From assembly GCF_000026545.1 (NCBI RefSeq), contig NC_011601.1: a stretch of DNA of 64,000 nucleotides; one strand, written 5' to 3'. Position 1 is the stretch's first letter, and each line of letters begins with the position of its first letter. Origin of the DNA: Escherichia coli O127:H6 str. E2348/69. Lineage in GTDB: Bacteria > Pseudomonadota > Gammaproteobacteria > Enterobacterales > Enterobacteriaceae. A program made the translations under genes and the position numbers. The notes under the pieces were generated by a model. It made no database searches. It saw only the letters and a list, made by a program, of their open reading frames with translations, and had not been told where the DNA came from. This document shows positions 40,463 through 41,345 of this stretch, piece by piece.

Positions 40463-40993
40463 ATGTCATTAAGGAGAATGACATCTGGTGAATTAACATT
40501 AGCCAGATCGATTTTTGAGAATACAATTGATTATAACAAGGTATGGATCCACAATGAAAAATATTTGCCCGGTCAAGGGGAAAGAACAGCGATGACCCCA
40601 AACGGGGAAATGTATTATCCTGATGCTGTTTATAGTTCAGATTTTTCATCGCAATCAATGCCTGGTGAGCGTGAAACAGTAGCAGGTGCTTCTCACTTGT
40701 TTATTCATGAAATGATGCATATTGGGCAATATCAGAAAGGGTATGCAGTTAAGTTGCGTGGTTTATTTTCCTGGGCGGCAAATTATCATTACGATCTTAA
40801 CTTACAGTCAATTGCTTCTTATTCCATGGAGCAACAAGCATCTATAGTAGCTGATTATTGGCTATTGATTAACTACGGACTGGTAGCTGATTTGGCAAAT
40901 GTTAACTATGTAGGTGATACAACTGAATCAGTGAACACGCTATCGGAAAAATACAAAAAGGTGCTTAATTTATTTCCTGCGGGCGTCATATGA
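40463..40993 (+). CDS. hypothetical HExxH zincin-like protein (DUF4157-like)
   Basis: 176-aa ORF, RBS aggagaaagg; HEMMH at residues 82-86 (nt 40706-40720) preceded by DFS; AT-rich context. Confidence 0.6.
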   Translation: MSLRRMTSGELTLARSIFENTIDYNKVWIHNEKYLPGQGERTAMTPNGEMYYPDAVYSSDFSSQSMPGERETVAGASHLFIHEMMHIGQYQKGYAVKLRGLFSWAANYHYDLNLQSIASYSMEQQASIVADYWLLINYGLVADLANVNYVGDTTESVNTLSEKYKKVLNLFPAGVI

Positions 40994-41345
40994 AGAGATT
41001 TTTTTATTGTTCTTTTTATCGGGATGCACTGTTGGTGATTACGTTCGCCCATTGTTGCCCGGTAATATATCTTTACAAGACGGACGGGTTTGTTCAAAAC
41101 CAGACGATGGGAGTATGATTTCAAATTATATTTTATATGAAGGTAAATATGGCAATGTAGTAAAACTGAAAAAATTGACTGGTCAGTTCGAACCCGTATG
41201 TATTGACATAAGTGAGCTATCTTCAGATGTTACTTATATCGGAAAATATATGCTCTCTTCCGGAAGTAAAAAAGAATACTATGGTTTTAGCATAATTAGA
41301 ACAGGGGTGCGTATTTTAAGACTTGATGATAATCATATTAAATAA
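40990..41345 (+). pseudogene. putative lipoprotein gene, frameshifted at a T7 tract (candidate immunity partner)
   Basis: ATG 40990 overlaps upstream stop (ATGA); T7 at 40999-41005; long ORF 41007..41345 with lipobox LSGC is in the +1 frame. Confidence 0.5.

Follow-up and report, generated by a model that had tools for sequence, protein, structure and literature searches.

The gene directly downstream of a VgrG2b-type toxin gene in Escherichia coli O127:H6 str. E2348/69 is best read (probability roughly 0.8) as a pseudogene: a Tpi-like immunity lipoprotein gene with a loss-of-function frameshift that is fixed in the E2348/69 lineage and does not act as a switch. Neither the event nor the system is of a new kind. 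Its value lies mostly in annotation, where an "intact 112-aa hypothetical protein" of E2348/69 becomes a frameshifted Tpi-like immunity gene beside an intact VgrG2b-type toxin gene.

Layout of the frameshifted gene

The analysis covered a 64,000-nt stretch of the E2348/69 chromosome (contig NC_011601.1), hereafter the window. The features of the toxin and immunity genes are as follows.

40463-40993, + strand: intact gene for a free-standing 176-aa zinc metallopeptidase (HEMMH); homolog of the VgrG2b C-terminal T6SS toxin and putative Tpe-type cargo effector
40977-40979, + strand: in-frame CTG, the PGAP start for identical T7 DNA in other strains; product MRASYEEIFLLFFLSGC...
40990-40992, + strand: ATG at which the immunity lipoprotein gene ancestrally begins, annotated as the CDS start in T8 and interrupted-tract strains; translational coupling
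40990-41118, + strand: 42-codon ORF that the coupled ATG opens in the T7 allele, out of frame; its peptide is presumably junk
40999-41005, + strand: T7 tract and frameshift site; in alignments, a 1-nt contraction of the sister-allele T8 (TTT TTT TTA)
41007-41345, + strand: remaining immunity ORF of 112 codons, opening at TTG; RefSeq hypothetical protein WP_012578901.1
41169-41174, + strand: A6 run (A6TT here, A7T in a sister haplotype); site of an independent -1 frameshift in another lineage

The effector ORF ends with a TGA at 40991-40993, and the ATG at 40990-40992 shares bases with it (ATGA), an overlap already seen in the preliminary description of this DNA. That description also placed a T7 run at 40999-41005; the run is indeed exactly 7 nt long and is followed by an A at 41006 and a TTG at 41007-41009. 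In the T7 allele, the product of the ATG frame starts MKRFFYCSFYRD... and reads MKRFFYCSFYRDALLVITFAHCCPVIYLYKTDGFVQNQTMGV before a stop, which makes 42 codons where 44 had been counted. This 42-residue peptide was absent, by exact-sequence lookup, from a collection of ~15 billion proteins. The longer ORF from TTG 41007 had been put at about 110 residues and comprises 112 codons (41007-41345), with the N-terminus MFFLSGC and, as described, a lipobox, LSGC, at 41016-41027. Its offset from ATG 40990 is 17 nt, and it lies in the -1 frame. Because of this offset, a single inserted T joins both frames: one added T (or a -1 shift) at the tract yields a 118-aa product with the N-terminus MKRFFLLFFLSGC, the in-frame signal peptide that had been anticipated. 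The T deletion is the sole lesion of the immunity gene in the window.

Runs of this length are not unusual in themselves. The window contains ten T7 runs (for example at 8071, 12729, and 18051) and six A runs of at least 7 nt, where about 3 per base type would be expected at random, and the run studied here is noteworthy for its position, not for its existence. The G+C content of the toxin/immunity gene pair is 36%, compared with 50% for the window. A promoter and terminator scan of positions 39700-41700 returned nothing better than shuffled sequences, and no terminator between the effector and immunity genes.

Identity of the effector-immunity pair

The upstream gene product matched PDB entry 6H56_A in a phmmer search (E=2.9e-18, residues 4-138 against 99-233), with its HEMMH aligned on HEMTH, the catalytic motif of Pseudomonas aeruginosa VgrG2b, so that the HExxH signature is present. 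It is 176 aa long in every relative. No Pfam family matched it even at E<=10, and hence no DUF4157, nor did any NCBIfam model; the missing DUF4157 is not disqualifying, because Wood 2019 (PMC6899460) describe that domain as "frequently" present in the family. The same study identified the C-terminal domain of VgrG2b as a metallopeptidase toxin that is active only in the periplasm and innocuous in the cytoplasm. A small immunity ORF (PA0261) is always found downstream of this toxin family, and PA0261 without its signal peptide gives no protection. Many Enterobacteriaceae carry the toxin as a free-standing cargo effector together with predicted lipoprotein immunity proteins, one of which was localized to the outer membrane (Wood 2019, PMC6899460).

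For the immunity protein, the NCBIfam model NF045617, "putative T6SS immunity periplasmic lipoprotein," matched the 118-aa form over 107 of 119 profile positions at E=1.5e-8 and 34.8 bits, which is under its curated cut-off of 43 bits; the 112-codon TTG ORF also matched below that cut-off (E=5e-7). A Pfam scan of the lipoprotein and a PADLOC run returned nothing. A word-indexed homolog search with the lipoprotein retrieved Escherichia relatives and one 48%-identical protein, with no direct link to PA0261. Its only PDB match, to a PDZ domain at E=1.5, was dismissed as chance. The effector gene is also linked to a T6SS spike gene, with vgrG directly downstream (full length in relatives, a stump in the window), and an envelope-targeting signal (MKRFFL..LSGC) is encoded by the T8 and interrupted-tract alleles and is out of frame in the window. 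Judged by these similarities and this gene order, the locus belongs to the T6SS effector-immunity cassettes of Tpe/Tpi type, with a VgrG2b C-terminal metallopeptidase paired with a PA0261-type immunity protein, whose toxicity and neutralization are putative.

Homologs and tract states across E. coli

The locus was found in ~215-230 of 5,426 complete E. coli genomes, always on the chromosome and adjoining ansP. Three states of the tract account for these copies. In ~180 complete genomes the tract is interrupted (TTC TTT TTG TTT TTC TTT TTG, with or without a 6-nt insertion) and in frame, giving MKRFFLFFFLSGC; these genomes share the signal peptide, with the interrupted tract TTCTTTTTGTTTTTC, and in L004 and L005, the interrupted-tract loci among those retrieved, the tract is TTCTTTTTG. 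A T8 tract (TTT TTT TTA), in frame from the ATG, occurs in ~24 of the 5,426 genomes and in loci L002, L003, and L011-L013. The T7 tract, out of frame from the ATG, occurs in nine of the 5,426 and, among the loci, in the window, L001, L006-L010, L014-L016, and L018-L033. One further locus, L017, has a T9 tract and is likewise out of frame.

In the T8 and interrupted-tract relatives, the overlapping ATG opens a single ORF for a lipoprotein of 118-120 aa that begins MKRFFL(L/F)FFLSGC. Every in-frame homolog retrieved has the MKRFFL.. N-terminus and a lipobox, and the 48%-identical relative begins MHNIKKIGMLLFLLSGC. In the comparison of orthologs that had been proposed, all in-frame homologs thus begin at the ATG. 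It follows that the ancestral gene was an ATG-started, translationally coupled lipoprotein gene and, since the T8 and interrupted-tract relatives read through, that the T7 of the window is a 1-nt deletion from T8. Conservation does not extend to the T tract itself. Among ~215 genomes, ~180 specify the same residues by TTC TTT TTG TTT TTC, in which no T run exceeds 5, so T richness is a by-product of Phe and Leu codons. The long T run is a derived, synonymous accident of codon choice in the signal peptide.

Allele counts among public assemblies

Exact protein sequences were looked up in the collection of ~15 billion proteins, which derive from public assemblies. The E2348/69 haplotype was represented by 86 contigs with the out-of-frame gene (112-aa TTG-start ORF) and by none with the gene in frame; the repaired 118-aa form of this haplotype was absent from the ~15 billion proteins. 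The out-of-frame entries include CAS09143.1, a protein from the original Sanger genome. T7 was found in all 10 fetched copies of the haplotype, whose flanks diverge by as many as 24 SNPs over 3.3 kb (0.7%), and was also present in three complete O127:H6 assemblies and in monkey (Mexico) and pig (China) strains. This uniformity of T7 despite diverged flanks argues against switching, and no reversion of T7 was observed among the E2348/69-lineage copies examined. The 112 codons downstream of the tract are still open and identical across the 86 contigs, an observation that counts against decay and would fit continued use.

Sister haplotypes presented a different picture. Haplotype P0012 was in frame on 810 contigs and out of frame on 22, of which the fetched copies comprised nine T7 and one T9, and haplotype P0013 was in frame on 713 contigs and out of frame on seven. 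Out-of-frame tracts (T7, once T9) thus make up 1-3% of contigs on these two haplotypes, and this variation indicates that the tract is prone to slippage. On the P0012 haplotype, a T7 locus (L010) and a T9 locus (L017) have identical flanks and lie 2 SNPs from a T8 locus (L002) over 3.3 kb. T7, T8, and T9 amid near-identical flanks have the look of a mutable tract, and this too counts against simple decay. T7/T8 heterogeneity among isolates, which the preliminary description had suggested looking for, is accordingly found only on the sister haplotypes and not in that of E2348/69.

A second mononucleotide run in the gene has also slipped. At alignment column 193, L002, L009, and L010 have A7, and one base is lost in L003, L011, and L012; RefSeq labels the gene in these last three "lipoprotein, frameshifted," and the resulting 62-aa truncated product is present on 188 contigs. 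Mononucleotide runs are slippage hotspots in this weakly selected gene, and the E. coli indel rate is reported to climb exponentially with homopolymer length (PMC8510543). Strain A36, whose assembly has several private 1-nt insertions, was discounted as an independent T7 event.

Proposed course of the loss

In the reading that we favor, the immunity gene normally begins at the ATG overlapping the effector stop codon, and a short lipoprotein signal peptide (MKRFFLLFFLSG|C) would direct the immunity protein to the envelope's periplasmic face, the expected site of action of the toxin. In an allele of the TTT TTT TTA family, replication slippage would have removed one T, turning T8 into T7. Ribosomes entering from the coupled ATG would then make the 42-residue out-of-frame peptide, and the immunity domain could be read solely from poor starts (TTG 41007 and CTG 40977), which, giving no usable signal peptide, would not be expected to yield a lipoprotein in the periplasm. 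Export, and with it protection, would thus have been lost. The loss would be tolerated because the toxin is harmless in the cytoplasm of its producer and, with no T6SS reported for the strain, sister cells cannot inject it; selection on the immunity gene would be relaxed in E2348/69.

Alternative explanations

The preliminary description left a choice between a phase-variable switch and a recently decayed gene. The allele counts bear out decay, "recently" is doubtful because the T7 carriers have diverged, and a switch is unsupported in this lineage. Such a contingency switch, in which slipped-strand mispairing at high frequency toggles the immunity lipoprotein and E2348/69 happens to have been caught in the OFF state, is quite unlikely in our judgment. 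It would account for a homopolymer at codons 4-6, in the 5' coding region, that is in frame at T8 and out of frame at T7 and T9; for the occurrence of all three lengths within a single protein haplotype, among loci that differ by 0-2 SNPs; and for out-of-frame variants on three haplotypes. Clonal variation of the tract was not encountered in the E2348/69 haplotype, however, and the sister-haplotype ratios fit mutation-selection balance rather than a switch. The repeat is not maintained across alleles, being interrupted in the majority of genomes, and the same gene is inactivated elsewhere by the unrelated A-run frameshift. In mismatch-repair-proficient E. coli, A/T runs of 7-8 nt have mutation rates orders of magnitude below those of classical contingency tracts. 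A literature search yielded no relevant work on T6SS immunity genes with homopolymer-driven phase variation. Little probability likewise attaches to a -1 ribosomal slip on U7 (P-site tRNA-Phe moving from UUU to UUU, then UUA), or to a U added by the polymerase, that would sustain low constitutive immunity. By frame arithmetic, a -1 shift on the run gives exactly the 118-aa N-terminus, the downstream ORF is undamaged, and a hairpin is predicted at 41016-41065, 10 nt past the run. Against this, the zero frame AGA UUU UUU UAU offers no canonical X XXY YYZ site, since both of its candidates, A UUU UUU and U UUU UAU, depart from that pattern. The hairpin falls short of significance (z=-1.46; an equally good fold arises in 15 of 200 shuffles), its spacing of 10 nt is beyond the 5-9 nt expected of a stimulatory structure, and it lies within coding sequence common to the in-frame alleles. 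The two-frame arrangement is not conserved, most homologs being a single in-frame ORF, and 7 nt is shorter than the runs of ~9 or more on which E. coli RNA polymerase slips appreciably. If an orphan T6SS immunity lipoprotein were nonetheless controlled by the TTT TTT TTA tract, through low-rate contingency switching or leaky recoding, which we regard as a long shot, the E2348/69 gene would be revertible or weakly expressed, E. coli populations would mix immune and non-immune cells, and the T7, T8, and T9 variants in near-identical strains would be the footprint of that process.

It is very unlikely that a functional protein is made from an alternative start, whether the TTG at 41007 chosen by RefSeq for E2348/69 or the CTG at 40977 chosen by PGAP for other T7 strains. 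The 112-aa TTG product is recorded in RefSeq and UniProt, a weak Shine-Dalgarno-like element (AAGAGA) lies 8 nt upstream of the TTG, and PGAP calls the 122-aa CTG-start form a "lipoprotein." The TTG product, however, has no charged n-region and only three residues ahead of the lipobox, which makes export and lipidation implausible. The CTG product opens with an acidic n-region (MRASYEE), and its start codon is very weak and is not preceded by a Shine-Dalgarno sequence; moreover, a family immunity protein deprived of its signal peptide does not protect (PMC6899460). The CTG-start CDS is annotated at 2523-2891 in L008, L009, and L010, and the sequence is identical in the window. Because RefSeq and PGAP disagree on the start for identical DNA, pipeline heuristics are suspected, and CTG 40977 is probably an annotation device and not a real start. 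Taken on sequence grounds, none of the routes by which the T7 allele might escape its frameshift (TTG, CTG, or a -1 slip) is likely to give a functional protein. That the genome is truly T8 and T7 an error of sequencing or assembly has a negligible probability: homopolymer length errors are common in long-read assemblies, and the private insertions of A36, together with its other frameshifted genes, make an error possible for that strain alone, but T7 occurs in the Sanger-derived protein, the three complete O127:H6 assemblies, and 86 contigs contributed by numerous independent projects.

Decay of the vgrG-rhs island

In E2348/69 the cassette is placed between ansP and a remnant of vgrG and rhs, which consists of two fragments.

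41567-42505, + strand: 5' fragment of vgrG (T6SS spike); RefSeq pseudogene "phage late control D family protein, missing C-terminus"
42495-43507, + strand: internal rhs fragment, fused by deletion to the vgrG stump; RefSeq [quoted passage not shown]

The vgrG of E2348/69 is a 313-codon stump joined to the internal rhs fragment, with the junction visible at aligned column ~3148, and relatives have a full-length Vgr of 655-664 aa (Phage_GPD, Phage_base_V, and Gp5_trimer_C) at the same place. Upstream of its effector gene, E2348/69 has a derived deletion of 150 bp. The satellite island is wholly degenerate in this strain, with the effector ORF alone intact, a state made tolerable by the inertness of the toxin in the cytoplasm. 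E2348/69 has been reported, in a single paper (Miquel et al.), to lack any T6SS.

A strict order of events, with the vgrG-rhs deletion first and the frameshift second, was considered and withdrawn, since it is contradicted by L030, which combines the E2348/69 haplotype and T7 with a full-length vgrG, and by the L003 group, which has the vgrG-rhs deletion with T8 plus the A-run frameshift. These two patterns together require recombination or recurrence. An intact vgrG accompanies T7 in L030, L010, and L014-L020, and the frameshift is therefore not a simple consequence of vgrG loss.

Comparison with known systems

The closest described system is VgrG2b/PA0261 of P. aeruginosa with the Tpe-Tpi family (Tpe1-Tpi1, ACIAD0053/0054 of Acinetobacter baylyi; SARI_02727/02726 of Salmonella enterica subsp. 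arizonae). As in VgrG2b/PA0261, an HExxH toxin homologous to 6H56 is directly followed by a small ORF, envelope-targeted in its in-frame alleles, and adjoined by vgrG, and as in the Enterobacteriaceae pairs of Wood 2019, a free-standing cargo toxin is combined with a putative lipoprotein immunity protein. Unlike VgrG2b, the putative effector here is a separate 176-aa protein, unfused to VgrG and lacking DUF4157. The E2348/69 locus further departs from VgrG2b/PA0261 in its frameshifted immunity gene, its truncated vgrG and rhs, and a host reportedly without a T6SS.

The lesion resembles those of E. coli accessory genes that PGAP flags as "frameshifted," being a single-base contraction of a mononucleotide run in DNA of low G+C content, and sister alleles of this gene are flagged already. 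In E2348/69 the lesion differs in being hidden from the annotation, because the pipeline placed the start at a TTG further downstream and entered the product as a hypothetical protein. The gene shares with the poly-G and poly-C contingency loci of Neisseria, Haemophilus, and Campylobacter a homopolymer in the first codons of an envelope-protein gene, whose length toggles the frame, and some length polymorphism in close relatives on sister haplotypes. In contrast to those loci, the tract is short (7-8), made of A/T, not conserved, invariant in the E2348/69 lineage, and out of frame in 1-3% of copies elsewhere. Like orphan T6SS immunity genes, the gene resides in a strain with no working T6SS or spike, but here the immunity gene is broken and the effector intact, the reverse of the usual pattern.

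Significance for annotation

The locus is a further case of decay of a T6SS satellite island in a strain that lacks the apparatus. E2348/69 is predicted to be sensitive if it faces E. coli that fire this toxin. The tract alleles indicate that synonymous codon choice in a signal peptide rich in Phe and Leu can make or remove a slippage hotspot. RefSeq handles the same DNA in three inconsistent ways, namely with a TTG start, with a CTG start, and as "frameshifted."

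Annotation of the immunity lipoprotein alleles

Identical T7 DNA at the start of the immunity lipoprotein gene (window 40977-41009; 2523-2891 in the relatives' copies L008-L010) was treated in three differing ways by RefSeq/PGAP. In E2348/69, A25, and DCE7, a TTG start yields a 112-aa "hypothetical protein," and in A36, 2022H047, and Z1323HEC0477, a CTG start yields a 122-aa "lipoprotein" or "hypothetical protein." Alleles of the gene that differ at an A run are called "frameshifted" pseudogenes. This run is a second slippage site of the gene:

41169-41176, A6TT in the window, A7T in a sister haplotype

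Loss of one base from the A run in another lineage (188 public contigs) results in a 62-aa truncated lipoprotein, and RefSeq labels these one-base-loss alleles "lipoprotein, frameshifted."

A T9 tract was observed in one relative (L017, GCA_016786245.1; positions 1485-1501), its haplotype otherwise having T8 (810 contigs) or T7. The flanks of this T9 locus are identical to those of a T7 locus (L010) and differ by two SNPs from those of a T8 locus (L002). The strain A36 assembly (L008, NZ_CP028739.1) has several private single-base insertions within 3.7 kb, with both ansP and vgrG frameshifted; homopolymer lengths read from it are unreliable.

Genomic surroundings of the effector-immunity pair

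The effector-immunity pair (40463-41345) has a G+C content of 36%, compared with 50% for the window, and this low value fits an origin by horizontal transfer, with insertion next to ansP. About 150 nt 5' of the effector start, 150 bp have been deleted between GTTAAGA direct repeats (window ~40314-40320). The missing segment is retained in outgroup alleles L004, L005, L010, and L013, and the deletion is the derived state. Promoter sequence of the effector-immunity operon may have been lost with it. Downstream of the pair lies a fusion:

41567-43507, vgrG 5' fragment (about 313 codons) that a deletion has joined to a frameshifted internal piece of rhs

The deletion junction, at about 42495-42506, is shared with the 377323_2f/EC12/RM14723 group and is absent from L030, whose effector-immunity haplotype is that of the window. 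In the region 3' of the rhs remnant (~43928-44440), RefSeq places two genes on opposite strands, one for a hypothetical protein of 92 aa and the other for a type I toxin of the SymE family.

Other elements in the window

RNA elements were called by Rfam matches at the gathering score:

4829-4892, (-) strand, RydC sRNA
11066-11218, (-) strand, sok antitoxin RNA of a hok/sok-type locus
57961-58019, (+) strand, SECIS_3 selenocysteine insertion element

The SECIS_3 element probably lies within a formate dehydrogenase gene.
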